DNA from: Neisseria flavescens
GTDB taxonomy: Bacteria > Pseudomonadota > Gammaproteobacteria > Burkholderiales > Neisseriaceae
Strand: one strand, 5' to 3'
Assembly: GCF_001618075.1 (NCBI RefSeq)
Contig: NZ_LAEJ01000024.1
Length of the DNA: 32,000 bases
Every line of letters starts with the position of its first letter. Within the stretch, counting starts at the first letter, position 1. Of the stretch, positions 2,259-30,885 are shown piece by piece. Both the position numbers and the translations under genes were made by a program. The notes below the pieces were generated by a model. That model did no database searches and was not told the origin of the DNA. It saw only the letters and a list, made by a program, of their open reading frames with translations.

Positions 2259-2406
2259 TACAATGATTTTGTTTTATTCATAACAATCTCAAAAAAATGC
2301 CCGATTCTGCATCGGGCATATCAACTATTTAGAAAGGATATTTATCACGAAAACGTGAGCCATTATTATACACGCTTCGTAAAATTTTAAGGGAAATTTA
2401 CACCGA

Positions 2407-2434
2407 AGGCCGTCTGAAACTTTTCAGACGGCCT
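2407..2434 (-). terminator. DUS inverted-repeat hairpin after the 268-aa gene
   Basis: AGGCCGTCTGAA (2407-2418) and TTCAGACGGCCT (2423-2434) lie 7 nt past the stop at 2441. Confidence 0.6.
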
Positions 2435-2440
2435 GGATAC

Positions 2441-3247
2441 TCAACGGCGGTATTTCATTTCAGTCTTCATATCGTCCAAGATACGTTTGACGTTGTGTTC
2501 CAATACATCCTCCACCAAGCCCGGTGCCTGCTCGTTCAGCATTTGCTGCAACTGATAAGTGAACAAGGCCATTTGTTTTTGTACGGCAATCCGAATCATG
2601 CCGTTGACCGCATCGGCCACATGGGGGCGCAAACGTTTAATCAGACGCTCGGTCAAATCTTTTTCAGAAACGCAGAATACTTCCCGACGGCCAATCGCCT
2701 GCGGGTTCAATACATTGATATGGACATTGATGGCCGGTTCTTTTTCAGGTTCAAGGCCGTCTGAAACCGCCCCTTCAGCCGTTTCCGCATCATCATTTTC
2801 CGGTTTTTCAGTTTCTTCCACTTCAGGCATATCAAAATCTACTACACCTGATTTCGGATTCAATCTGACGGTGCGCGTTGATTCGATATGACGCTCTGAA
2901 GCCGCAGCCTGCAACGCTGATTGCGCGCTCAACCAGTTGTCCTGCAAAACCACCATCGCATCGGTTTCCACTGCTTCGCCATCGTCGGTCAAAGCAGTAT
3001 TGTGTTCCAACTGCCAACGGTACAAATACTCTTCCAGCACTTTTTCACGATTGTCTGCATCCAGTTTATATTCTTTTTTAGCCGCGGTTTTGGATGCGGT
3101 ATCGACAGCTTCGTCCGATTTTTTGACCAATGGTGCATGGGTCGGCGCGGTATTGAATTGTCGCGCCTGACGCAATCTTTCCAGGCGTTTTTCCCAATTC
3201 AGGTCTTCTTCCTCGAGGGCTGAGGGGTCAAGACGGTTGTTTTCCAT
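2441..3247 (-). CDS. Hypothetical acidic protein (Glu/Asp-rich centre, helical basic C-terminus)
   Basis: 268-aa ORF, ATG start. All overlapping plus-strand ORFs are shorter with low-complexity translations. No motif recognised. It contains an in-frame DUS at 2754-2765. Confidence 0.6.
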   Translation of the reverse strand: MENNRLDPSALEEEDLNWEKRLERLRQARQFNTAPTHAPLVKKSDEAVDTASKTAAKKEYKLDADNREKVLEEYLYRWQLEHNTALTDDGEAVETDAMVVLQDNWLSAQSALQAAASERHIESTRTVRLNPKSGVVDFDMPEVEETEKPENDDAETAEGAVSDGLEPEKEPAINVHINVLNPQAIGRREVFCVSEKDLTERLIKRLRPHVADAVNGMIRIAVQKQMALFTYQLQQMLNEQAPGLVEDVLEHNVKRILDDMKTEMKYRR

Positions 3248-3409
3248 AATAATCTCGTTTTTTCATTTTTATTGTGAACCGTATTCAAGCCTAAAATCAT
3301 TTGAAATACAGCCGATGGTTGGACATATCCGGCAAGCCGGCGCAAGCGTCACATTTTAATATTAATTCGCTATATAATCACTATTTTATTTAATACTCAA
3401 GGATACATC

Positions 3410-4974: not shown

Positions 4975-6282
<1,308 letters not shown>

Positions 6283-6352: not shown

Positions 6353-6386
6353 AAAAAACGCCCCTGCAAAAGCAGGAGCGTTTTTT
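6353..6386 (-). terminator. Rho-independent terminator; apparently the original tRNA-Glu terminator, now ending the island operon
   Basis: Stem CGCCCCTGC (6359-6367) / GCAGGAGCG (6372-6380) with one mismatch, flanked by A6 and T6. On the minus strand it lies directly 3' of the tRNA 3'-end remnant at 6395-6412. Confidence 0.6.
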
Positions 6387-6394
6387 AAGAATTT

Positions 6395-6412
6395 TGGCAC
6401 GCCCACGAGGAT
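6395..6412 (-). repeat. Distal direct repeat (att-like): duplicate of the tRNA-Glu 3' end
   Basis: TGGCACGCCCACGAGGAT here versus TGGCACGCCCACGGGGAT at 15368-15385, a 17/18 match. Read on the minus strand it is ...GTGGGCGTGCCA, i.e. T-stem, acceptor and CCA. Confidence 0.7.
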
Positions 6413-6433
6413 AACTATCGGCACACAAAATAC

Positions 6434-7258
6434 TTACTGGTAGTTCAAATGTTGTTTCAATTTAGCTTCCTCAAGCCATCGTAAAGCATGATGACGGTCC
6501 AGTTCTTCTCGCTCCACATTGCTATCACTACCCGCCAAGCAATGCTGACAAACGCTACCACAATCAGCTGGGCAATTCAAACGGTCTAAAGCACGACTTA
6601 TGATACCGTTGATGTCATCTACAGCAGATAAAACGAAACCTGCGCCCCCTTCGGCTTTATCGTAAATCTGAATCAAACAGCGAACGGAACCTGTTTCCAA
6701 ATCTCTATCTGCTCGCACGGCATAGCCCATTTCAGTAGTTTCTATACCCAAAAAAGCAGCAATTTCATCGCGTACAGCAACGGCAATCGTGCGGGCGGTA
6801 GTTTTATCTCCACTACCTAGCCATGCCTTGGTTTGTGGATTTTTCAGAGCAATCTCCAATACATCGGTTGAGATATGATGGCCCAGATGGATATTGATCT
6901 GAACATTACTATTAGGACAATCTTTACTATTACTGCTAAGATCCAAACCGCCACCCAAGGTTTTATGATACTCACCCAAAAATACATTAGGCAGTTCACC
7001 TGCTTCAGTCATGGAATCAGCCCTACCGCATCTCATGCAAACAGCAAAACCTTTTTCATGCTTGCCACTAGAGCGAAACAGTACTCTACCGTCACTACCA
7101 TATCTAATTTCACCACACTCATGTTTTAGAAAGGCTACAGTTTCATCATCCAATTGTACTCTAGGAGGCTGGATAGGAACGAATGTTTGATAGGAAACAT
7201 CGTTGCTACTTTTTTCAAAAAAGTCAGTCAAAAAACCTGTTGGGTTAGTACCGTACAT
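6434..7258 (-). CDS. Helicase fragment 3: C-terminal part of the DUF1998-like zinc domain
   Basis: 274 aa with CMRCGRAD and the terminal CPADCGSVCQHCL cluster typical of DUF1998 ends. It overlaps fragment 2 by 31 nt in another frame and has no SD of its own. Confidence 0.7.
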   Translation of the reverse strand: MYGTNPTGFLTDFFEKSSNDVSYQTFVPIQPPRVQLDDETVAFLKHECGEIRYGSDGRVLFRSSGKHEKGFAVCMRCGRADSMTEAGELPNVFLGEYHKTLGGGLDLSSNSKDCPNSNVQINIHLGHHISTDVLEIALKNPQTKAWLGSGDKTTARTIAVAVRDEIAAFLGIETTEMGYAVRADRDLETGSVRCLIQIYDKAEGGAGFVLSAVDDINGIISRALDRLNCPADCGSVCQHCLAGSDSNVEREELDRHHALRWLEEAKLKQHLNYQ

Positions 7259-10176
7259 TGTTCATCAAAAGGAATATTTTCACCGCAGTGAGAACATTGG
7301 ATATCATTACAGCTATATTTGTAACGCGTCACGCCAGATGTACCGCAGTTTTTACAGCGCCACGCAGTATCGAAGCGTTGGTCTTCGTTTTTGCCTCGTT
7401 CATCCGATTTTACCCGTAGATTGATGCCAGCAGAACGGTATACGCGCCCATCTAATACAACATCCGAACCAGGTGCGTATTCACGCAGTGCAATATCCAA
7501 ACTACGACTTGGGTTTTCTTTGCGGATGAACAGATTATCTTCTCGCTCCTCTCGTTCACGGCGTAAGTCTTCCATTTTACGGATTTTCATTTCTACTATG
7601 CCAGTAGGGAAACCATAACCAGGTAGAAATGCGTTTACCGCCAGATAGCCAAGCAGGTTCTCATTTTCATGTAGTTGTTTCTCGCGATTTAAGGCTTTCT
7701 TGTATGAATCGTTGCTAGTTTGCTTAATTTTATGATTGATATTGTGAAAATCAGCCTGCCAATTCTCTGCCAACTCCAGCAGCCGCTGTTTAGCACTTGC
7801 TTTGATACGTGTCAATGGTACTCCTCCCAAAGCAGTACCTGCCGCCAGTTTACCCAAAGCTTGGTCAATAGTAGAGCATTCTGGTGAGTTCATCCAGTCG
7901 CAAAACTGCTGCCAAACAGATTGGGTTGGATTGAAAAACCAAGCAGTATTCAGCTTAGTACGGTCTTTGCCTGTATCGCTGCGCTTGGCAAGAAATGCTG
8001 CCAATAAGAGAGAATGCATATGGCGGCTGACGATTTTTTCAGAGCTTAACGATACTTTCGGAGCAGCAATAGCAGTAGTGAACGCCCATTTTGGATTGGT
8101 AAATACACGGCGATTATGAGGATCATTTTTGCATAGTGTATAAGCTATTGCAGCTGCTTCGCTACGACGGCCTGCACGACCGGCACGTTGCAGGTAATTA
8201 GCAGGGTGTGGTGGTACATTATTCATTACCACTGCTGCCATACCGCCAATATCCACACCCATTTCCATGGTAGTAGAGCAACTCAATACATTAATTTTCC
8301 CTTCTTTGAACATCTGTTCGTATCTGTTTAATTGTGTAGATGCAATTTGTGCTGAATGTTCCGCCGCACGATAGTAGAAACCTCCTTCAATGATTTTATC
8401 GTTCAAATTGCTCCACAAACCTTCTTGGCGCAAGTGGCCTACATCTTTATCTTGCTTCAGCAAACGACGCATTTGGCTACGACGAGATTCAGCAGTGGCA
8501 TCCTGTTTGAAACGATAATAATCTGGAATCTCAGTTTTGCTGCAAAATAGTTTTTCAGACGGCATTTCCTGCCAGTTACCAGGCAAATAAGGAGACACAC
8601 CGCGCAAAGTAGTGTCGATCAGGCGGTGACTTTGCGGACACAGCCACATTTCTTTTTCAGGTAACTTAAACGCTATTGCTGAAAGCGGCATTTTCCAAGT
8701 ATCATTATCGGGATGCAGGATATTGCTATCAGTAGTCAATTGTTTCCACGCAGTTTGCAGCCACGAATTAATTTTGTGTTTAGCCAAAGGGTTTTGAATA
8801 TCAAGACCTGTAACCGCCTGCAAAATTTTGACTGCTCGAGGCTGTTGGCCTTTATCTCGAACTTGCGGCCAAGCCCGTTTGCGCAAAGTTTGCTTTTCTC
8901 TGGTATCGGGCGACAGCAGGGATTTTCCCGAAAAGCGTTTGCCTAACCATCGTTTTTTCTGCTCATCTAAATTGGTAAAGGAATTTTCACGGACATGAAA
9001 ATCCAAAATCATTTTTAAAAATGCTTTCCAATCATCCAAATCCAGCGGCTTGCTTGGATTGTCTGCCTGATTTAAAACACGTGTCTCTACCCAACCATCA
9101 GGCACTGTGCTGATTTTATCCAGACCAGGATAACAAATCATTGTCAAACCTAAAGTTTCCAAACTATTGGCATTTCTTGGGCGTCTGATAAATTCGCGTG
9201 CCAGTAGCAACTCTGCCAGCTTTTCTGCTCCGTTGCCACTAGGGTCATTAAACATACTGGGATTAGTTTCTCGATTGTAAGGCAGTAAATCTTGCGTCAT
9301 TTCAGCTTTGTCGCGCAGTGTACGGTACATATCATCCCAAGTGAGGTAGGCTTTTTTGTCACTTTTTTGTGCTTTACTTTTTGCTACTTCCAACAACATT
9401 TCCGCCAAAGTGGGATCGGTTTGTTTCAATTGTTCGATTTTTGCTGCCATTTCAGGCATTAGGACGTTATTAACAGTTTTTTCAGTTTCCTGCACCAATA
9501 CATCAAATACCATACCACGCAGTTTGGAATACTCTGCTTCCTGCTGCATTTTTACCGCCATTCTCGCTGTGCCTTGACGGCTGTCAGTAAAAGTAATCAA
9601 ACGCCGTCCACGAGCAGGTAACGATTGCGGATCATTTTCAGCATCACTACAAAATTCCAATACGGTCGGAACAGCGTGGGTTACATAAAACGGTGCACCC
9701 AAATATTGTCCACGATAAAACGGCATTCTTTGGTTTTCTTTGCCGCAGGCGGAACAGCAGGCATGCGGGGAGTAATCCAAAGCCAACTCAAAAGCTTTAC
9801 CTTGCTGTACGCCGATTTGCGCAGTTTCTTTATCGATTTTTTGTACCGTATAGTTTTCAGACTGCATATCGACTGGGGCTGCAAGCACTTTATTGCGGGA
9901 TATGAATTGTAGACCATCTGAAATTGAGTTTACGTCATCACCACTGTCTTCTTCATCATTGGCTGCAGGCTCAGGATTGAGTGCAAACTCATCGGTGATA
10001 TAGGTATCACACTGCTGCAAAATACCGTTATGCTCCTGCGCCATCAAGTGCGAGGTACCACAATCTTGGCACAACACTAATTCATACACAGGAGCACCAC
10101 AATCACATTTAGTTCTGCGGTTAAGATAAACCTGCCCAAATAGCCAGTCTTTAAGGTAACCTTCTTTTTGCTGCAA
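7228..10176 (-). CDS. Helicase fragment 2: Zn-ribbon, RecA2 lobe with large insertion, start of DUF1998-like domain
   Basis: 982 aa. The listed start is TTG with no SD. Contains ITFTDSRQGTAR, STTMEMGVDIGG, QRAGRAGRR (8164-8190), then FLPGYGFPTG, LREYAPGSDVVLDGRVY and WRCKNCG...CSHCG. Confidence 0.8.
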   Translation of the reverse strand: MQQKEGYLKDWLFGQVYLNRRTKCDCGAPVYELVLCQDCGTSHLMAQEHNGILQQCDTYITDEFALNPEPAANDEEDSGDDVNSISDGLQFISRNKVLAAPVDMQSENYTVQKIDKETAQIGVQQGKAFELALDYSPHACCSACGKENQRMPFYRGQYLGAPFYVTHAVPTVLEFCSDAENDPQSLPARGRRLITFTDSRQGTARMAVKMQQEAEYSKLRGMVFDVLVQETEKTVNNVLMPEMAAKIEQLKQTDPTLAEMLLEVAKSKAQKSDKKAYLTWDDMYRTLRDKAEMTQDLLPYNRETNPSMFNDPSGNGAEKLAELLLAREFIRRPRNANSLETLGLTMICYPGLDKISTVPDGWVETRVLNQADNPSKPLDLDDWKAFLKMILDFHVRENSFTNLDEQKKRWLGKRFSGKSLLSPDTREKQTLRKRAWPQVRDKGQQPRAVKILQAVTGLDIQNPLAKHKINSWLQTAWKQLTTDSNILHPDNDTWKMPLSAIAFKLPEKEMWLCPQSHRLIDTTLRGVSPYLPGNWQEMPSEKLFCSKTEIPDYYRFKQDATAESRRSQMRRLLKQDKDVGHLRQEGLWSNLNDKIIEGGFYYRAAEHSAQIASTQLNRYEQMFKEGKINVLSCSTTMEMGVDIGGMAAVVMNNVPPHPANYLQRAGRAGRRSEAAAIAYTLCKNDPHNRRVFTNPKWAFTTAIAAPKVSLSSEKIVSRHMHSLLLAAFLAKRSDTGKDRTKLNTAWFFNPTQSVWQQFCDWMNSPECSTIDQALGKLAAGTALGGVPLTRIKASAKQRLLELAENWQADFHNINHKIKQTSNDSYKKALNREKQLHENENLLGYLAVNAFLPGYGFPTGIVEMKIRKMEDLRREREEREDNLFIRKENPSRSLDIALREYAPGSDVVLDGRVYRSAGINLRVKSDERGKNEDQRFDTAWRCKNCGTSGVTRYKYSCNDIQCSHCGENIPFDEQCTVLTQQVF

Positions 10177-11519
10177 TGACGGTCAGCACACGCCCATAAC
10201 CCGTGCAGCATTGATTGAAATAAATGCAAACGCAGTTTTAAAAATGGTTCAGCATTTTCAGACGGCTTTGTCTGAGTCATAACATCCAGCCAGTCTAAAA
10301 CTTCACGCTGCTGTTCATAAAGGCTATCAGAAAGCAAATATGCTTGCGTTGCCTGTATCAATTGGTTCAGCGTGTAAGGTTGGGTATTGGCTGTCAGACA
10401 ATTACGCAGGGTTGTGGCTATTACACTTTGACAAAGGGCTGCAAAGCGTTCGGTTTCGTCCTTAATAGATGTGATATCTGCGAGGCTCTGTCTACCATCG
10501 GCAACACTAATCGGCAAAAAGTCGCGGCTTCCAGAAACTACTAGGACCTGTTCCTTTGGTACCCCAGCCAAATCAGCAAGATAGCAGCGAAGTTCCTCTG
10601 CTGCTTTGTCGGAAGCAATGGTGGCAGATGTAGCAACAAAGCGTATGTCCTCGGGCTTTTTGCCGAAAGCGTGTACTACACGGCGTAATAACAGTGCAAT
10701 TTCTGCCGCCTGCGATCCGATATAACTATGTGCCTCGTCTAATACTATCCAGCGCAATGAACCTGTTTGGCGTGATTTTTCCAAAATAGGGGCATCTACT
10801 TGGCGCACCAGCATATATTCCAACATAGTGGCATTAGTAAGTAGGATAGGCGGAGGTTCTTTACGTAGCAATTCCCGTGACAAGATTTGGTTGGGCCGGT
10901 CTTTGTCACGTGGTTCAGCACTTTCTTTTGTGTTACCGTTGTAAAGACAAAAGCGGATTTTGTTACCAAAAGGTTTCGTCCATGCATCCAAACGTTCCTT
11001 TTGAGAATTGATTAAAGCATTAAGTGGGTAGAGAAACAGAGCCTGAACACCGATAAGCGCTGTTTTTTCTAACGTTTGGCGACGTATCAGATCTTCCAAT
11101 ATCGGAATCATAAAACATTCAGTTTTACCTGATCCTGTACCACTGGTAATGATGGCAGATTTTGGATCATCCTCCAGAAGGTGCTTCCATACCTGCAACT
11201 GATGGGTATAGGGGCGGGCAGTTTTGGGAAAACCATATCTGTCTGCATCTGCCAACACATCTGTAAGTTTTGTAGAAAACAGGTTTTGTCTTACCAAATC
11301 TGCAAAGGTGCAGTCCGCACTTTTCCAACCAAAGGTATGTTCAACGACAGGGGCAGCGAGAAAACAGTTTTCATTACCCAATTCATTGCTAATCAATTGT
11401 CGCAGGTGACTACGCAATTTATTATCTGTAATATCCAATACGCCAATAGTAGCTTCCTTGATACGGTTCAGACTTTGCTCTATCAATCCGGAAAGAGTTT
11501 GCGTGGTATCGGTATTCAT
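10077..11519 (-). CDS. Helicase fragment 1: N-terminal region plus RecA1 lobe (DEAH box)
   Basis: 480 aa. Walker A GTGSGKT (11121-11141), DEAH (10728-10739), TSAT. The last ~29 residues (KKVTLKTGYLGRFILTAELNVIVVLLCMN) are out-of-frame read-through. Confidence 0.8.
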   Translation of the reverse strand: MNTDTTQTLSGLIEQSLNRIKEATIGVLDITDNKLRSHLRQLISNELGNENCFLAAPVVEHTFGWKSADCTFADLVRQNLFSTKLTDVLADADRYGFPKTARPYTHQLQVWKHLLEDDPKSAIITSGTGSGKTECFMIPILEDLIRRQTLEKTALIGVQALFLYPLNALINSQKERLDAWTKPFGNKIRFCLYNGNTKESAEPRDKDRPNQILSRELLRKEPPPILLTNATMLEYMLVRQVDAPILEKSRQTGSLRWIVLDEAHSYIGSQAAEIALLLRRVVHAFGKKPEDIRFVATSATIASDKAAEELRCYLADLAGVPKEQVLVVSGSRDFLPISVADGRQSLADITSIKDETERFAALCQSVIATTLRNCLTANTQPYTLNQLIQATQAYLLSDSLYEQQREVLDWLDVMTQTKPSENAEPFLKLRLHLFQSMLHGLWACADRHCSKKKVTLKTGYLGRFILTAELNVIVVLLCMN

Positions 11520-14500
11520 TATGATTCACTCACTAGGTAGCAGCTCAGGGAAGCGCAGACGTAATCAAACCATTCTGCATCCAAAGCGTAAATACGATAA
11601 AAAGCATCAGCAAACTGTGCAGCAGTCATTTCTAATGGCATGATATCTGAAGGCTGCGCATTGCCGGCTTTAACACAGGCAGTAAATACTGGTAGCCAGA
11701 CAACTGCACGATCAAAAGGAATTTTGGACAGACAGCGTACTTTATTGAAAAATACATCCTGTTGTTTTTCCAACCATTTTTGCAGACCATCTGAAAGCGT
11801 TTCAGGAATGCGTTGGTTGTTATTCTGACGCAATGCATTGTAATGGCGGTTATAACGTGAATCGTGCTTCTTGTCGAAAATTTCCCCAAGCGTTTTTTCC
11901 ACCACTATCATTTCTATTTCTGAAAGAAATCCTTTAAATACATGATTGCGTAAAATCTCGTCATGGCACAACACGCTTGTAGGAATACAGTTTTCAGGCA
12001 GGGGGAAATCATCAGGATTCAAGCCTTGAGCTACAATTTTGGTACGAATGTATGGTTTGTACGCACTTATGGCAGCAAACCAATCTTGTAGAGCCAACCA
12101 CTCCCATACCACAGCCAATTCGTTACGCATCCGCTCGCAAAATACACCATCCAACCTTAAGCGTAATACCGCCAAAGCCAAGGCTTTGGGCTGTTGTACC
12201 AAGGCTTTCCATGTTTCAAATACTGACAATGGCAGATGAGAAAAATGCTGCTTCAGGCTCTCAAAATACGACCAACCAGAATGCTCAGGATTACCCACCA
12301 TTTCTGTAATGATACGGCTAATAGCTTCGGGATTGTGGTCCGGATGGAAGGCGCGTGCAGCAATATGCAGGGAATTATGTTGAAATGGTTCGATAAATTT
12401 TTCACTGCTGTTGTCAAATATAGCTGGACGAAATTGAACTGGTGATTCAGGCGCAGGGTAAATCAACCACAATCCTTCATCATATTGCTCGGACGACAGT
12501 TGATAATGCCCATTTATCCTCATTGCGCTTTCAAGCAACCTTTGTGCACCTTTTTCAGGTGCATCCAAGCGCATGATGTTTACTACTGCTTCTCGGCAAG
12601 TCAATTCGTCTTCTGCCTGCCGTTTGATGACGAAACTTTTTCGTAATGCATCTGTTACTGCCAGAATACCGAAACGGTAAAACTGATTATTCCACATAAC
12701 TAGACCATTATAACGAGACAAGATAAGCCGTATCAAAGGGTTCTCTGAGCCCATATGGCACACAGTAATTTCTACCTGGGCATCTTGACTACTGCTGCAC
12801 GATAAAAGCTGCAAAAGTTGCGGTTTCCATTGATCTAAGAAAAACTGCTGTACCGAACCATCTGCTGACAAACGTTCGCTGATAGAAATGGGGCGACCAT
12901 GCACATTATCCGATAATTTAAATACCAGCCTCATATCGGTCGATGCGGAGGAATATACCATTATCCACTTGCCTAGCAACTGATTAATATTTAGACGGCA
13001 ATCATCAATTCTACCTTTTTCATCATATAGATACGCACCATCAAACGGTAGAGGTAGTCTTAATCGTGCAGCTTGAATAGGGTTACTTCCAACTGCAAGA
13101 ATAATATGAGATGGATAATTACTGTCCTCAGCTTGGCAGATAAATCTAAATCGGGAATGGATTTGTGTGATATCTAAATGCTTGGCAAAGACATCTATGA
13201 AAACCTTTTCGGAAGTATCAACATTTAAAATGGCGGGATCTTTGTCGCTTGCCGCTTGCCAAGTATAGGAAAAATCTTCAGGCAGAACAGTAATTTTACG
13301 CCGCAACAAACAAATTGCGCCCTTATAGAAAGCCACCTGAAATGTACCATAATAGCTCGGGCAGATATTTGATTGGACCTCACCGTTGATTTTGATGTGC
13401 GTCGGAGATAAGTCAGGGGGTGTTAGCAGAGTAGGAAAACCACGATACACAGGTAAACCATCAGTATTTTGGCAGTGATAAAACAGTCTCCCGTGCAAAA
13501 TACTCTGTTCTGTCAGACTAGCTTGTACAACAACTATTTCTCGCCCATCCTCATGATGAGCAGTCAATCCATCCGAACACTTAAACCACTGCCTGCCCAA
13601 ATAGGAAACATTTTCATCTTCAGACAACCTAAAACCGTCTGGTAGATGAATCAAAATATCTCTATCTTTACTGCGCGTGTATTCATTAGTAGAGAACAGT
13701 TGCCAACGTTGATCTTGAGCAGGGTGAAACACCAGCGGTGCATCTTCATCAAATCCAGTATCTCCAAACAACTTGGTATAGAGCAGCCGCCCGCCAGCAA
13801 ACACTCGCACAGACAAAGGCAGACTAGGTTTCTCTCGGACAAAATCAAGCTGTTTCCCAAAAGGAAGTTTGAATGTTAGCTCTCCGCCTGTATCACTAAG
13901 AGAAGCAAATACTGTTGCTCCCATTTGGGCAACTGGCTCTTCCCCTTCAAAAATTTGCCATTGTAAAACCGTTTTACCCTGATAATTCTGAATAGGGAAA
14001 CTAAATTTTTCAGGTAACCCGATTTTAGCATGCAAGCACCAACTTTCCTCCTTTACATAATGCCGACAGGAGAACTCTTGCTTTTCCACTTTTTGACGTT
14101 CGTCTGCTGCATTACCCAACCAGCGGTTGATAACTGCATCCACCTGATTACCATCCAAAGCAAAAGGAAACTCACTGCGCCAACCACTATCTGCCTGATC
14201 TAGGTATTCGACCAAATTGCGTTTATTCTTCAAGTCAAACCGTTCAGCGAGCTTGACTAGCGCTCTGACTGTATCCGCAAATAGAACAACAGCTGCAGTA
14301 TCACGAAATACTTGTGCTAGTCTATACACTCTTTCAGCAATATATTCTTCTAAAGGGCGGAAAGTTTCCATACTCTCCTGATATTTTTTCAAGCCATAAT
14401 CAATAATATTGCGAATAGCATTATCATCAGCTGCAAGCATTTTCAGTGGTAATCCACCTTCAGCAATTAATGTACCAAGATAACGCGTATTTTTAGCAGC

Positions 14501-14866
14501 GTCATATTTCCATTCTCGCCGCCAATATGCCAACCCTTTTTTCAAATATTTGTAACGCTGCTGTTCATTATCAAATTGCGTACCTATTGCATTATCGAAA
14601 AATGCCCAACTCCATTCACCACCCGAATACTCGCGCCGATAAGTTTCACTCACTGCCAGACAGTAACAGGCACACCATTCGTCCTGATAAGAAGAACCCG
14701 ATATCAAAAAAGGCTTACGACAAAACAGCGCACACAGTTCACGGTATTCATTTTCATTAACTGCATAAGTATACAGTGGCCTACCATTCGGAATAGGATT
14801 AAGTGGATCACGATTAAAAAAGAAATGTGATAACCAACTCTTAAACGGGTTCGCAAGATTTTTCAT
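11519..14866 (-). CDS. 1115-aa protein of unknown function; DruH-like partner (STY4851/ECs_5259-type family, named from memory)
   Basis: Uninterrupted 3.3-kb ORF, and only short noise ORFs overlap it. Rich in aromatic residues (W/F/Y). I see no P-loop, nuclease, methylase or helicase motif. Its stop overlaps the helicase start (TAATG). Confidence 0.8.
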   Translation of the reverse strand: MKNLANPFKSWLSHFFFNRDPLNPIPNGRPLYTYAVNENEYRELCALFCRKPFLISGSSYQDEWCACYCLAVSETYRREYSGGEWSWAFFDNAIGTQFDNEQQRYKYLKKGLAYWRREWKYDAAKNTRYLGTLIAEGGLPLKMLAADDNAIRNIIDYGLKKYQESMETFRPLEEYIAERVYRLAQVFRDTAAVVLFADTVRALVKLAERFDLKNKRNLVEYLDQADSGWRSEFPFALDGNQVDAVINRWLGNAADERQKVEKQEFSCRHYVKEESWCLHAKIGLPEKFSFPIQNYQGKTVLQWQIFEGEEPVAQMGATVFASLSDTGGELTFKLPFGKQLDFVREKPSLPLSVRVFAGGRLLYTKLFGDTGFDEDAPLVFHPAQDQRWQLFSTNEYTRSKDRDILIHLPDGFRLSEDENVSYLGRQWFKCSDGLTAHHEDGREIVVVQASLTEQSILHGRLFYHCQNTDGLPVYRGFPTLLTPPDLSPTHIKINGEVQSNICPSYYGTFQVAFYKGAICLLRRKITVLPEDFSYTWQAASDKDPAILNVDTSEKVFIDVFAKHLDITQIHSRFRFICQAEDSNYPSHIILAVGSNPIQAARLRLPLPFDGAYLYDEKGRIDDCRLNINQLLGKWIMVYSSASTDMRLVFKLSDNVHGRPISISERLSADGSVQQFFLDQWKPQLLQLLSCSSSQDAQVEITVCHMGSENPLIRLILSRYNGLVMWNNQFYRFGILAVTDALRKSFVIKRQAEDELTCREAVVNIMRLDAPEKGAQRLLESAMRINGHYQLSSEQYDEGLWLIYPAPESPVQFRPAIFDNSSEKFIEPFQHNSLHIAARAFHPDHNPEAISRIITEMVGNPEHSGWSYFESLKQHFSHLPLSVFETWKALVQQPKALALAVLRLRLDGVFCERMRNELAVVWEWLALQDWFAAISAYKPYIRTKIVAQGLNPDDFPLPENCIPTSVLCHDEILRNHVFKGFLSEIEMIVVEKTLGEIFDKKHDSRYNRHYNALRQNNNQRIPETLSDGLQKWLEKQQDVFFNKVRCLSKIPFDRAVVWLPVFTACVKAGNAQPSDIMPLEMTAAQFADAFYRIYALDAEWFDYVCASLSCYLVSES

Positions 14867-14896
14867 AATAGAAATCGGCAGTTGACTTAAACCGAA

Positions 14897-14905
14897 ATTA
14901 TATCA
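14897..14905 (-). promoter_or_regulatory. Candidate extended -10 promoter for the island operon
   Basis: The minus strand reads TGATATAAT (TGnTATAAT) about 30 nt upstream of the ATG at 14866. No good -35 element. Confidence 0.3.
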
Positions 14906-15320
14906 GCATATAAAAAACATTTGGATTTTAAGTGCAGTGCCTAGACCAATCTTACAAACCTAATATAAAAACAGCATATCAGACGCCTACAACCCAAAAA
15001 CTTACAGATAGGCTTATTAAATATACACTTCCTCAATGGATTTTATAGAAGGGAAATTAATCTATTCTTTTTCAGTGCTTTCAACATGATTTTCGTTTTC
15101 ACGATTTCTTCCCCTATTTATCTTCTAAGTTTAATAACCATCAATTACATCAATGAGACACTCTTTTGCCTTTTCTGAATGATGGTACTCATCCACCAGT
15201 CATCGATACATTATTTTTAGTTAATGTAGAACACCCAGAAATGTCGAATAGGCCGAGTATTTTGCTCCTAGCCCACGTTTACAGTAGAGTTTAAAGATGT
15301 ACAAGCAGTACCATAGTGAC

Positions 15321-15357
15321 AAAAAAATAAACCCTTACTATTTTTTAGTAAGGGTTT
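15321..15357 (-). terminator. Rho-independent terminator immediately 3' of tRNA-Glu (island side)
   Basis: 12-bp stem AAACCCTTACTA (15329-15340) / TAGTAAGGGTTT (15346-15357) with a T5 loop, followed on the minus strand by ATTTTTTT. Confidence 0.65.
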
Positions 15358-15367
15358 ATTCAAAATA

Positions 15368-15385
15368 TGGCACGCCCACGGGGAT
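15368..15385 (-). repeat. Proximal direct repeat (att-like) inside the tRNA-Glu 3' end
   Basis: 17/18 match to 6395-6412. Confidence 0.7.
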
Positions 15386-15443
15386 TCGAACCCCGGTTGC
15401 CGCCGTGAAAGGGCAGTGTCCTAGGCCTCTAGACGATGGGCGC
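15368..15443 (-). tRNA. tRNA-Glu (anticodon UUC)
   Basis: The minus strand reads GCGCCCATCGTCTAGAGGCCTAGGACACTGCCCTTTCACGGCGGCAACCGGGGTTCGAATCCCCGTGGGCGTGCCA, 76 nt. It folds as a cloverleaf with anticodon loop CTTTCAC, T-loop TTCGAAT and an encoded CCA, and aligns closely with E. coli tRNA-Glu. The first acceptor pair is a G1-U72 wobble. Confidence 0.93.
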
Positions 15444-15576: not shown

Positions 15577-16476
15577 ATGTGGTTTAAGCAAATCAGTTTT
15601 TATCCGCTCAACAAAGACAAGTTGCCCGAATTGGAAGTCCTTGCCGATAAATTGGCGCAATCCGAATTTGCCCATTGTCAGGGTTTGGACTGGTTTAGCG
15701 AAGGCTTTGCCACGCCGGTTTCCTTTTCGCCCGAGCTGGTTTTCCCTGCCGATTACACTTGGCGCGTTGCCCTGAAAAAAGAAGAAAAAGTCCTGCCTGC
15801 CGGCGTGATCCGCGATATTTTGGATGAAAAGGTTTTGGAAATCCAAAACAATGAAGCGCGCAATGTCGGCCATAAAGAAAAACAAGAGCTGAAAGAACAG
15901 ATTACTGACGACCTGCTGCCCCGTGCCTTTACGCGCAGCAGCCGCACACAGGCGATTTTCGACACGCGCCACGGGTATCTTTTGATCAACAATGCCGCCT
16001 CTGCCAAAGCGGAAAACATCCTGACCAAACTGCGCGAAGCCTTAGGCGGTTTGGAAGCAGCCCTGCCCAACACCAAACAATCGCCCTCTTCCCTGATGAC
16101 CAGCTGGCTGCTGCAAGGCCATTGCGAAGGTGGTTTTGAATTGGACAGCGATTGCGAACTCAAAGGCGTAGGCGATGTTGTTCCGGTCGTCAAAGTTTCC
16201 AAACAAGACTTGACCGCCGATGAAGTGGTACAACACGTCAAAAATGGCAAAACCGTTACCCAACTTGGCTTGGTATGGCGCGAACAAATCGCGTTCATCC
16301 TCACCCAAGACTTTACGCTCAAACGCATCCAGTATCTGGACGTGTTGCAAGAAGAAGCCGAAAGCAACGGCGACGATGCTGCCAGCCTCGCCTTTGCCTC
16401 GCAAATCCTGATGACTGAAGCCATCAGCACCATGTTAGAAGAACTGGTTTCTTATTTGGGCGGCTGGCAAGAGTAA
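15577..16476 (+). CDS. rdgC: Recombination-associated protein RdgC
   Basis: 299 aa. The N-terminus MWFKQISFYPL... and the overall length are typical of RdgC. Two long antisense ORFs are artefacts. Confidence 0.9.
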   Translation: MWFKQISFYPLNKDKLPELEVLADKLAQSEFAHCQGLDWFSEGFATPVSFSPELVFPADYTWRVALKKEEKVLPAGVIRDILDEKVLEIQNNEARNVGHKEKQELKEQITDDLLPRAFTRSSRTQAIFDTRHGYLLINNAASAKAENILTKLREALGGLEAALPNTKQSPSSLMTSWLLQGHCEGGFELDSDCELKGVGDVVPVVKVSKQDLTADEVVQHVKNGKTVTQLGLVWREQIAFILTQDFTLKRIQYLDVLQEEAESNGDDAASLAFASQILMTEAISTMLEELVSYLGGWQE

Positions 16477-16550: not shown

Positions 16551-17336
16551 ATGATGTTGGGCGCAGTCATCGGCGATATTGCCGGATCACGATTCGAGTT
16601 TGACAACTACCGTCATACCGATTTTGACATTTTCAGCCCCGACAGCGACTTTACAGATGACACGATTTGCACTGCTGCCATTGCCGATTGGGTTTTACAA
16701 GGCTGCAACGATAATTTAGCCTCTATTTTACAAGGCTGGTGTAGGGCATATCCCTGTCCAAAAGGCGCATATGGCGGCCGCTTCTCACAATGGATAGAAT
16801 GGAAAGATCCAGAACCTTATAATAGCTGGGGCAACGGCTCGGCCATGCGTGTTTCTGCCGTTGGCTGGGCATTTGCAACATTGGAAGAAACCCTGCATTT
16901 TTCCGAACAATCCGCCATCGTAACGCATAACCACCCGGAAGGCATTAAAGGCGCACAAGCTGTAGCTGCTGCCATATTTTGGGCGCGTACCGGTATAGGC
17001 AAAGCGCAAATCAAAGAAAACATTACACGGCAATTCGGCTACGACTTGAGCCAAAGTTGCGACCAAATCCGCCCGCATTATCATTTCAACGAAAGCTGCC
17101 AGGAAACCGTACCTCAAGCGATTACTGCCTTTCTTGAAAGCGATGATTTTGAACACGCCATCCGACTGGCGGTTTCCCTGGGCGGAGACAGCGATACCTT
17201 GGCAGCCATTACCGGCAGTATTGCCGAAGCCTACCATGGTATCCCTGCATCCATGCGCGAACACGCTTTAGCCATATTGTCACGCCGTATTGCTGAAACC
17301 TTGCTGACTTTTGAATCCCAATATCAGGCCGTCTGA
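16551..17336 (+). CDS. ADP-ribosylglycohydrolase family protein
   Basis: 261 aa with GAVIGDIAGSRFEF, GNGSAMRVSAVG and SLGGDSDTLAAITGSIAEAYHG, the metal-binding Asp/Thr motifs of the ARH/DraG fold. Confidence 0.85.
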   Translation: MMLGAVIGDIAGSRFEFDNYRHTDFDIFSPDSDFTDDTICTAAIADWVLQGCNDNLASILQGWCRAYPCPKGAYGGRFSQWIEWKDPEPYNSWGNGSAMRVSAVGWAFATLEETLHFSEQSAIVTHNHPEGIKGAQAVAAAIFWARTGIGKAQIKENITRQFGYDLSQSCDQIRPHYHFNESCQETVPQAITAFLESDDFEHAIRLAVSLGGDSDTLAAITGSIAEAYHGIPASMREHALAILSRRIAETLLTFESQYQAV

Positions 17337-17360
17337 AACTGCCTGCAAAAAGGAACAATA

Positions 17361-17792
17361 ATGATGAAATACCTCGCCCTACTTCCCGTCGCCTTCATGC
17401 TGGGTACGCCTGCCATTGCCGAAACCATCAATCCTTATCAGGAAAAAGGTTGCGTTTACGATGGCGATGTCGGCAAAGACGGCAAACCATCCGGCAAAGG
17501 CACATGGAAATGCCAAGACGGCCGCAGCTATGTCGGAGCCTTTAAAGACGGCAAATTTGACGGCAAAGGCGTATATACCGTTTCCAGCAACAGCGAAACC
17601 TTTATCGAACCTTTCTCCTCCAACAGCGCCAAATTACGCAATATGACGCTGGAGGGCGTGTTCAAAAAAGGCAGGGCGCACGGAAACTTTACCGCCTCCC
17701 AAAACGGCACACCCGTCTTCATCATGAAATGCGAAGACGGTATGATTAAAGAAGTCAAACTGGCTAAGAAATCTGCGTCCAAAACCAAATAA
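17361..17792 (+). CDS. Secreted MORN-repeat-like protein
   Basis: 143 aa. Signal peptide [20 protein letters not shown]|E. Repeated G-K-G-x-W/Y...DG..Y.G.FKDGK..G.G units. Confidence 0.6.
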
Positions 17793-18484: not shown

Positions 18485-18499
18485 TACACAAAATAAAAA

Positions 18500-18525
18500 A
18501 GGCCGTCTGAAATTTCAGACGGCCT
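18500..18525. terminator. DUS inverted pair between convergent dcd and ppsR
   Basis: AGGCCGTCTGAA (18500-18511) and TTCAGACGGCCT (18514-18525), flanked by A-run and T-run. Confidence 0.6.
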
Positions 18526-30038: not shown

Positions 30039-30524
30039 ATGAAAACGATAGACATCAAGGCCATGAAAGAACTCGACAAAACCGACTTAAAAATTCTCAA
30101 ACTCCTGCAACAAAACGCACGTATCCCCATGACCGAATTGGCTGAAAAAGTCGGCCTCTCCACCACGCCGGTAACCGAACGCGTCCGCCGCTTGGAACGC
30201 GACAACCTTATTACCGGCTATCACGCCCATCTGAATCCTCATGCTTTAGGTCAAAGCCTCTTGGTCTTTGTCGAGCTGAAACTGCGCTCCAAATCCGGCA
30301 ATATTTTTGAAGACTTCAAACGCGAAGTGCTGAAGATTCCGCAAATTCTGGAATGCCACTTGGTCTCCGGCGAATACGACTACCTTATCAAAGTCCGCCT
30401 GCCCAATATGTCCGCCTATCGCGATATGCTCGGCAATATCCTGCTGCAACTGCCGGCTGCAGCCGAAAGCCGCAGCTATGTTGTCATGGAAGAAGTCAAA
30501 GAAGAAGTAGTATTAGACATCTAA
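30039..30524 (+). CDS. lrp: Lrp/AsnC family transcriptional regulator (leucine-responsive regulatory protein)
   Basis: 161 aa. HTH LDKTDLKILKLLQQNARIPMTELAEKVGLSTTPVTERVRRLE, followed by a RAM/ACT-like domain. Confidence 0.88.
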   Translation: MKTIDIKAMKELDKTDLKILKLLQQNARIPMTELAEKVGLSTTPVTERVRRLERDNLITGYHAHLNPHALGQSLLVFVELKLRSKSGNIFEDFKREVLKIPQILECHLVSGEYDYLIKVRLPNMSAYRDMLGNILLQLPAAAESRSYVVMEEVKEEVVLDI

Positions 30525-30592: not shown

Positions 30593-30684
30593 AAAAAAAT
30601 GCACACATCCGACAGAATGTGTGCCAAGTCTACAAAGGAGAAATAGAGGAGAAACTATTAACTGACTACTCGAACCAGCTAACG
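30593..30684 (-). ncRNA. Sibling small RNA, copy A (NgncR_162/163, RcoF/NmsR-type)
   Basis: Minus strand: promoter, about 60 nt, the conserved CU-rich core TTTCTCCTCTATTTCTCCTTTGTAGACTTGGC, then terminator GCACACAT-loop-ATGTGTGC plus T8. No credible ORF. The 5' end is estimated from the -10 box (+/-3 nt). Confidence 0.7.
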
Positions 30685-30690
30685 AAACGA

Positions 30691-30791: not shown

Positions 30792-30879
30792 AAAAAAATG
30801 CGCATACCGTTTCGATATGCGCCAAGTCTACAAAGGAGAAATAGAGGAGAAAAATCAAGCTGCATCAAGCAACTCAACG
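30792..30879 (-). ncRNA. Sibling small RNA, copy B
   Basis: It has the same 32-nt core as copy A (30821-30852 versus 30623-30654) and its own terminator GCGCATA-loop-TATGCGC plus AT7. The 5' region is divergent. Confidence 0.7.
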
Positions 30880-30885
30880 GCGCGA

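Follow-up and report, generated by a model that had tools for sequence, protein, structure and literature searches.

A tRNA-Glu islet of Neisseria flavescens that very probably carries a two-gene Druantia type III operon with a PLD-less, frameshifted DruE

We analysed a stretch of 32,000 nucleotides from Neisseria flavescens (contig NZ_LAEJ01000024.1 of NCBI RefSeq assembly GCF_001618075.1), hereafter called the window. Positions 6413–15367 of the window very probably represent an islet at a tRNA-Glu gene that carries a two-gene Druantia type III operon, druH–druE, in which the helicase DruE lacks the C-terminal PLD module of characterised relatives and is broken in this assembly, and which would act by the mechanism of its homologues. 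Systems of this kind are already known: PADLOC or DefenseFinder would annotate the locus as Druantia III, NCBI already names DruH as a member of the STY4851/ECs_5259 family, and the catalogue of defence systems gains little from this locus.

Identity of DruH and DruE

The two genes lie on the minus strand, and the ATG of druE overlaps the TAA stop of druH by 1 nt (TAATG); druH–druE is thus a translationally coupled operon with druH first. The first gene, druH (11519–14866), is intact and encodes a protein of 1115 amino acids (aa) of the YjiT or STY4851-ECs_5259 family, which is identical to N. flavescens WP_157686113.1. DruH matched the PADLOC profile DruH3 (PDLC00050) from end to end (E = 1.4e-172; residues 6–1113 against profile positions 3–1096 of 1101). 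A search of 5.8 billion proteins returned 71 homologues, several of them named 'STY4851/ECs_5259 family protein' and all of them carrying the newer Pfam families YjiT_N and YjiT_2nd (PF27201 and PF27205). The DruH family profile matched the solved Escherichia coli DruH structure 9tud at E = 1e-106, and the single DruH sequence matched it at E = 7e-11. The 1115-aa protein, which the initial annotation had described as an orphan, therefore has both relatives and a solved homologue. The Pfam search with DruH itself gave no match, the local Pfam copy being one without the YjiT and YjiV models.

The AlphaFold2 model of DruH (mean predicted local distance difference test score, pLDDT, of 85) consists of a helical region (residues 1–263), a beta-rich array of Ig-like domains (266–818) and a second helical region (833–1114), the same helical/Ig-like/helical layout as published for DruH (Loeff, 2026; Hu, 2026). 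Foldseek comparison of the model with the PDB (library to 8 April 2026, with no DruH listed) returned generic Ig-like arrays with TM scores below 0.2, including NCAM2, contactin-3 and cytokine receptor ectodomains, and these matches confirm only the Ig-like middle region. The Neisseria protein is 29% identical to a Pseudomonas aeruginosa DruH over its full length. In the N-terminal region R19 is near-invariant (45 of 48 sequences), and E74, R77 and the E136-G-G-L-P140 motif are invariant; R19 aligns with R22 of P. aeruginosa DruH, a residue reported by Loeff (2026). The residues K28, E64 and E220 of the same report had no counterpart that could be mapped onto the window DruH, the P. aeruginosa DruH retrieved being a different allele or differently numbered.

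The second gene, druE (6434–11519), encodes a YprA/MrfA-like superfamily 2 (SF2) helicase with an MrfA Zn-binding domain (MZB, formerly DUF1998) and without a PLD module. It is present in this assembly as three open reading frames (ORFs) on the minus strand, encoding 480 aa with Pfam DEAD (10077–11519), 982 aa with Pfam Helicase_C (7228–10176) and 274 aa with Pfam MZB (6434–7258). The three fragments tile the PADLOC profile DruE3 (PDLC00037) at positions 3–455, 456–1413 and 1413–1680 with 678, 1134 and 289 bits, respectively. From the N-terminus onwards, the minus strand encodes GTGSGKT (11121–11141), DEAH (10728–10739), SAT (10620–10628), ITFTDSRQ (9574–9597), MEMGVDIGG (8242–8268), QRAGRAGRR (8164–8190), FLPGYGFP (7606–7629), REYAPGSDVVLDGRVY (7438–7485) and the MZB Cys4 zinc motif CPADCGSVCQHC (6539–6574), whose cysteines are C1650, C1654, C1658 and C1661 of the repaired protein. 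All ORF and motif coordinates of the initial annotation were exact, and the DUF1998/MrfA zinc-binding layout that it had recognised corresponds to the Pfam MZB domain of the third fragment. It had also read the helicase as one second gene running from 11519 down to 6434; this extent was right, but two 1-bp deletions split the gene, and the frame correction that it had proposed yielded a DruE of 1695 aa.

Repaired DruE matched the E. coli DruE structure 9tu7 with 1037 bits (chain residues 15–1723 of 2108). Identity over residues 12–1692 is 49% with a P. aeruginosa DruE and 36% with ECs_5260 of E. coli Sakai. Conservation includes Walker A, DEAH, motif VI and all four cysteines of MZB, and the Cys4 motif aligns with C1681/C1683/C1687/C1690 of E. 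coli DruE, which are required for defence (Himpich et al., 2026). The Druantia type III assignment of the initial annotation was thus upheld by end-to-end matches to DruH3 and DruE3 and by both solved structures. In the profile check that it had set beforehand, DruH was significant and the helicase was not MrfA-like, with 68 bits to MrfA/YprA (6znp) against 1037 bits to DruE.

Helicases of this kind share their core with other systems. MrfA resembles the Neisseria protein in its SF2 core, OB and MZB (DUF1998) modules and, by homology, in its 3'–5' polarity, and weak PADLOC matches to DrmA, DrmB, DpdJ and BrxH were obtained alongside the match to 6znp. The helicase could on these grounds be a housekeeping repair helicase of the MrfA/Lhr type or part of DISARM, ARMADA or Dpd. 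However, DruE3 scores 10–20 times higher, the best match among the DISARM, Dpd, BREX helicase and Cas3 models being at most 84 bits; the partner is DruH and not MrfB, DrmB/C/M or an ARMADA protein; and the gene lies on an accessory islet that near-identical genomes lack, and is not a core gene of about 750–1500 aa without a DruH partner. MrfA itself differs in being a repair factor of 751 aa that is paired with the MrfB exonuclease. An MrfA/Lhr helicase or another YprA system is therefore effectively refuted, and we give it almost no probability. DISARM, Hachiman, Dpd, BREX helicase and Cas3 were likewise rejected on PADLOC score and gene content, in agreement with the initial annotation, which had set DISARM and Hachiman aside.

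The islet and its insertion site

The islet is 8955 bp long, and its presence or absence varies among closely related Neisseria contigs. It lies between serS (4975–6270, minus strand) and a tRNA-Glu (UUC) gene (15368–15443, minus strand; identified by ARAGORN, Rfam tRNA and junction alignment), beyond which follows rdgC (15577–16476). As the initial annotation had stated, the two co-directional minus-strand genes are the sole coding content between serS and tRNA-Glu: druH and druE fill 8433 of the 8955 bp, and neither an integrase or mobility gene nor any further ORF of at least 250 aa was found within 6413–15367. No DruA–D, DruF, DruG or DruM gene lies between the att-like repeats, and no Zorya II or ARMADA II neighbours were found beside the islet.

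The right direct repeat, TGGCACGCCCACGGGGAT (15368–15385, minus strand), is the 3'-terminal 18 nt of the tRNA-Glu gene. The left direct repeat, TGGCACGCCCACGAGGAT (6395–6412, minus strand), is an att-like duplicate of it that retains 17 of the 18 bases of the tRNA-Glu 3' end. In 10 contigs with an identical RdgC protein (L016–L025), all of N. flavescens/subflava type and otherwise syntenic with the window, serS, tRNA-Glu and rdgC are adjacent with nothing between them. The alignment of these empty sites to the window runs up to 6412 and resumes at 15368, and the junctions share an 18-bp overlap. The tRNA-Glu direct repeats and the empty sites mark the locus as a tRNA-integrated genomic island, one that lacks an integrase. 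Its GC content is 0.40–0.45, compared with about 0.49–0.52 in the nearest flanking 1-kb windows. DNA uptake sequences (DUS) of the AG-DUS dialect occur in 31 copies in the 32-kb window, and only two of 37 DUS 10-mers fall inside the islet, the other 35 lying outside. The 18-bp tRNA-Glu repeats, the empty sites and the 31 AG-DUS copies thus bear out the tRNA-linked islet in Neisseria that had been proposed at the outset. The window SerS and RdgC are identical to N. flavescens KZC83753.1 and KZC83755.1, respectively.

Absence of the PLD module from DruE

Characterised DruE proteins of Druantia III-A have about 2050–2110 aa and two C-terminal PLD-like domains (PMC12458937; Himpich et al., 2026; Hu, 2026; Loeff, 2026). 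The length of about 1700 aa that the initial annotation took as typical of type III helicases is therefore not typical of the characterised III-A proteins; the Neisseria DruE is short through loss of the PLD domains. It lacks the PLD1/PLD2 module of about 370 aa, and its alignment to 9tu7 stops at residue 1723 of 2108. The closest full-length relative, P0073 (2058 aa; 85% aa identity), bears PLD domains and runs 368 aa further, and DNA homology with it ends 3 codons before the Neisseria druE stop. This stop lies 21 bp from the att-like repeat, with serS next, and no separate PLD gene is present downstream of druE.

Five other short DruE proteins share this C-terminal boundary: P0078, P0085 (Suttonella), P0119, P0162 (Azotobacter) and P0172. 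A neighbour-joining tree distributes the PLD-less proteins, that of the window included, over at least four distinct positions among proteins with PLD domains, and the Suttonella and Azotobacter PLD-less loci consist of DruH and DruE only. PLD-less DruE thus appears, from the tree, to have arisen at least four times. Among Neisseria alleles the ratio of nonsynonymous to synonymous substitution rates (dN/dS) was 0.17–0.32 for both genes, and against the P0073 lineage it was 0.07. These low ratios argue that the PLD-less druE is under purifying selection and that the short form has been maintained.

One or both PLD domains are missing from some type III DruE proteins, and deletion of the PLD domains leaves E. 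coli defence unimpaired (Hu, 2026). Himpich et al. (2026) demonstrated that a truncated E. coli DruE (residues 1–1723) restores defence against Bas26, the PLD domains being dispensable. The natural C-terminus of the Neisseria protein aligns to residues 1721–1723 of E. coli DruE, at the end of MZB, which is where this truncation ends. The two differ in that the truncation was assayed in E. coli alongside the DruH of that species and the neighbouring systems, whereas the Neisseria protein is known from its sequence. A natural III-A-like DruE that ends at MZB would, with three or more further losses of PLD that occurred independently, provide comparative support for the dispensability of the PLD domains, a point on which the 2026 preprints disagree.

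The Neisseria locus has the same two genes in the same order with the same 1-nt stop/start overlap as Druantia III-A of E. coli (ECs_5259/ECs_5260 of O157 Sakai/EDL933) and P. aeruginosa, whose locus is also tRNA-linked. DEAH and the MZB Cys4 are conserved, DruH is homologous over its full length, and DruE falls in the III-A clade, with 49% identity to P. aeruginosa DruE and a position nested among PLD-bearing proteins. However, it lacks the two PLD domains that characterise III-A, its dimerisation (PD/stalk) insert has about 33 aa compared with 79 aa in E. coli, and the locus stands alone, with druE frameshifted in this assembly. The ATP/single-stranded DNA (ssDNA) pocket residues of E. coli DruH are also not recognisably conserved in the Neisseria protein.

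Druantia III-B has a compact DruE, mostly without a nuclease domain, on a phylogenetically distinct branch (Bell et al., 2025, PMC12458937). The Neisseria locus resembles it, as compared by description, in consisting of just two genes and in having a DruE that lacks PLD domains, but differs from it in that this DruE nests among PLD-bearing III-A-like sequences, with P0073 as its sister. The nearest DruE neighbours found all bear PLD domains, which argues against membership of III-B, and the resemblance would therefore reflect convergent loss. Under the classification of PMC12458937, the Neisseria DruE appears to combine a III-B-like architecture with a III-A-like ancestry.

Related P. aeruginosa and E. 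coli loci have integrases nearby. In E. coli O157 Sakai, the DruH and DruE genes (ECs_5259/ECs_5260; L027 9012–18685, L026) lie in the phage-like element SpLE6, with an integrase and Zorya-like genes on one side and four large helicase genes (ECs_5261–5264) on the other, none of which occur at the Neisseria islet.

Some DruH homologues are longer than the window protein. P0003, P0005, P0008 and a Suttonella indologenes protein (L031 1439–6004) have 1521–1552 aa and are 37–46% identical to it; their N-terminal extension of about 420 aa is low-complexity or coiled-coil-like and may be an extra domain or the product of a mis-called start. The long Suttonella DruH is paired with a PLD-less DruE. 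Relocation of a PLD domain into the DruH homologues of about 1520–1550 aa was considered and rejected, the additional residues being N-terminal and without a Pfam match.

Frameshifts in druE

Two 1-bp deletions interrupt druE on the minus strand. At the first (10165–10169), which falls after codon 450, the coding strand has five A residues, compared with six in every intact relative; at the second (7242–7244), after codon 1425 and upstream of MZB, it has three C residues, compared with four in intact relatives. The first frameshift leaves only the N-terminal and RecA1 domains in frame, and the gene as written can therefore not yield a helicase. From the assembly as written, only DruH and a RecA1 fragment of about 450 aa would be produced, which would leave the system inactive. 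Druantia III requires both genes for defence; in this assembly druE is either a pseudogene or carries sequencing errors.

Compared with the intact alleles of two metagenomic loci (L008/L013, 10001–18435), every base of the window druH and druE is identical save the two deletions. Zero substitutions against two indels is an odd ratio for real evolution, and we put the chance that both are homopolymer under-calls of sequencing or assembly, the strain carrying an intact and functional DruH–DruE, at a little below even. A third private 1-bp deletion, A7 to A6, is intergenic (18495–18501), so that all indels private to the window are 1-bp homopolymer deletions, and a look-up of the exact frameshifted DruE products found none in other assemblies on record. 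On the other hand, all other window genes checked are full length, the chance of two random coding hits both falling in druE is about 0.06 (counting tracts of at least four bases), the affected tracts are short (A6 and C4), and recurrent loss of function in a dispensable defence gene is biologically ordinary.

The complete genome of the N. subflava isolate CP073119.1 (L030 2655–11087) carries the same Druantia islet with an allele that differs from that of the window. The same C4 to C3 change splits its druE (1430 + 274 aa), and a C5 to C4 change splits its druH (546 + 605 aa). Recurrence on a different allele, along with the druH deletion, fits a systematic, context-specific sequencing error. 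The shared C4 to C3 change would also fit a mutational hotspot or selection for loss, and we rate these explanations about evenly. The locus may be an instance of a defence system that is repeatedly inactivated in isolates under culture.

The identical change in two different alleles could also mean that the frameshifts are functional, either as a slippage on/off switch or by producing a split DruE in which a 1430-aa helicase and a 274-aa MZB protein act in trans, in the manner of DISARM DrmA/DrmB. The downstream 274-aa ORF has its own ATG and a complete MZB domain, and split helicase/DUF1998 arrangements occur sporadically among YprA relatives (PMC12458937). However, frameshift 1 removes RecA2 and leaves no working helicase, and the internal ATG of the 274-aa ORF has no obvious ribosome-binding site. 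High-rate phase variation in Neisseria involves tracts of about 7–8 bases or more, and the tracts of 4–6 bases in druE are shorter than this. The A6 and C4 tracts were moreover invariant in 14 metagenomic loci, unlike those of a contingency gene. True phase variation of druE is therefore unlikely, the tracts being both short and invariant, and a functional role of the frameshifts in either form seems highly improbable.

Only marginally more credit is given to the broader proposal that the short-tract frameshifts are real and recurrent, with commensal Neisseria repeatedly switching off Druantia III by slippage or running DruE split from its MZB protein. If so, the natural PLD-less DruE would show that wild strains can do without the PLD 'nuclease' module.

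Proposed mechanism and its weighing

The mechanism, held to be still unknown in the initial annotation, has been addressed by studies of the E. coli and P. aeruginosa systems in 2026. Both genes are needed and defence is direct and non-abortive (Loeff, 2026). DruE is a 3'–5' helicase and a dimer (Himpich et al., 2026; Hu, 2026). DruH binds ssDNA in competition with ATP (Hu, 2026); it is a 3'–5' exonuclease that trims 3' ends and recruits DruE at forks (Loeff, 2026), or a phage sensor with a dimer-dependent nuclease (nicking) activity (Wu). By homology with these systems, in which the individual steps were shown, we propose the following scenario for the Neisseria operon. DruE would be a dimerising YprA/MrfA-type 3'-to-5' SF2 DNA helicase that engages phage DNA during replication or recombination, at exposed ssDNA, 3' tails or forks, and then unwinds it. 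DruH may bind or process ssDNA and is the probable sensor of infection, and DruH and DruE may jointly clear phage DNA without killing the cell. Since the Neisseria DruE lacks the PLD module, any DNA cleavage would fall to DruH or to host nucleases such as RecBCD.

Several points weigh against this scenario and against a working operon. Hu (2026) found no nuclease activity of DruH. The residues of the E. coli DruH ssDNA/ATP pocket (Y670, N672, H689, Y733, R1031, H1062, R1064 and K1067) did not map to conserved positions of the window DruH, although at about 20% identity the alignment is unreliable. A scan of the region upstream of druH (14867–15324) gave no sigma-70 promoter above background. 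In the P. aeruginosa system the PLD-site mutation D1740A abolishes defence (Loeff, 2026), and a PLD-less DruE could be crippled if this were general. The end of druE 21 bp from the att-like repeat would, moreover, also be expected if the terminal part of a larger element had been deleted.

The last two points bear on the idea that the PLD-less operon, even in frame, has lost its defence function and is decaying, as what remains of a larger mobile element. The islet retains neither an integrase nor any other cargo, and two isolate genomes, that of the window and CP073119.1, carry frameshifts. Against this, dN/dS among the PLD-less alleles is low, DruE ends cleanly at the same domain boundary in four or more lineages, and the E. 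coli truncation and PLD deletions described above retain defence. The exact window DruH occurs in 222 blocks of public assemblies, and all seven of the loci shown encode an uninterrupted DruE of 1695 aa; DruE was likewise intact (1695–1696 aa) in all 13 metagenomic loci with the window DruH or a 97% identical DruH (L002–L006, L008–L014). We therefore consider a decaying remnant unlikely, and favour an operon that, where intact, may defend by the homologous mechanism.

Probable spread of the islet and neighbouring features

Matching druH/druE alleles were found in several metagenome contigs, intact copies being frequent among metagenome assemblies, and a scan of genome contigs with DruH peptides found a single locus. 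In the strains with matching druH and druE, the flanking housekeeping genes have synonymous divergences (dS) of 0.05–0.34 (rdgC 0.125; serS up to 0.14). Identical islet genes beside diverged flanking genes suggest recent horizontal spread of the islet between strains of the N. flavescens/subflava group. In this naturally competent genus the islet is likely to have spread by homologous recombination through its flanks after transformation. The locus thus represents a clean, minimal defence islet with att-like repeats and without an integrase, in which druH and druE are base-identical, save the two deletions, across divergent chromosomal backgrounds.

A hairpin with a 16-bp stem and a T-run (15325–15361, minus strand) lies at the islet edge directly downstream of tRNA-Glu and is likely to be a terminator that shields druH from tRNA read-through. 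A GC-rich hairpin with T-runs on both strands (6355–6386), beside a DUS, is chromosomal and also present in the empty site; it is likely to be a bidirectional terminator that now ends the druE transcript. The hairpin at 15325–15361 came with the islet, and in empty sites tRNA-Glu instead runs straight into the chromosomal hairpin.

Next to rdgC lie an ADP-ribosylglycohydrolase gene and then a gene for a small MORN-repeat protein (16551–17792). Genomes that lack the islet have both genes as well, which are therefore part of the core chromosome rather than of the defence islet. A 268-aa ORF without a Pfam match (2441–3247, minus strand) resembles a gene for a variable protein that is surface-exposed or secreted, judging from its sequence context; the region 2270–3400 is indel-rich among otherwise near-identical relatives, with poly-A/T tract variation at 2276 and 2298 and indels of 3–6 bp. 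Two tandem copies of the small RNA NmsRb (RcoF1/NgncR163; Rfam RF02877) lie on the minus strand at 30595–30685 and 30794–30880 (103 and 78 bits, respectively), downstream of an Lrp/AsnC-type regulator gene (30039–30524).

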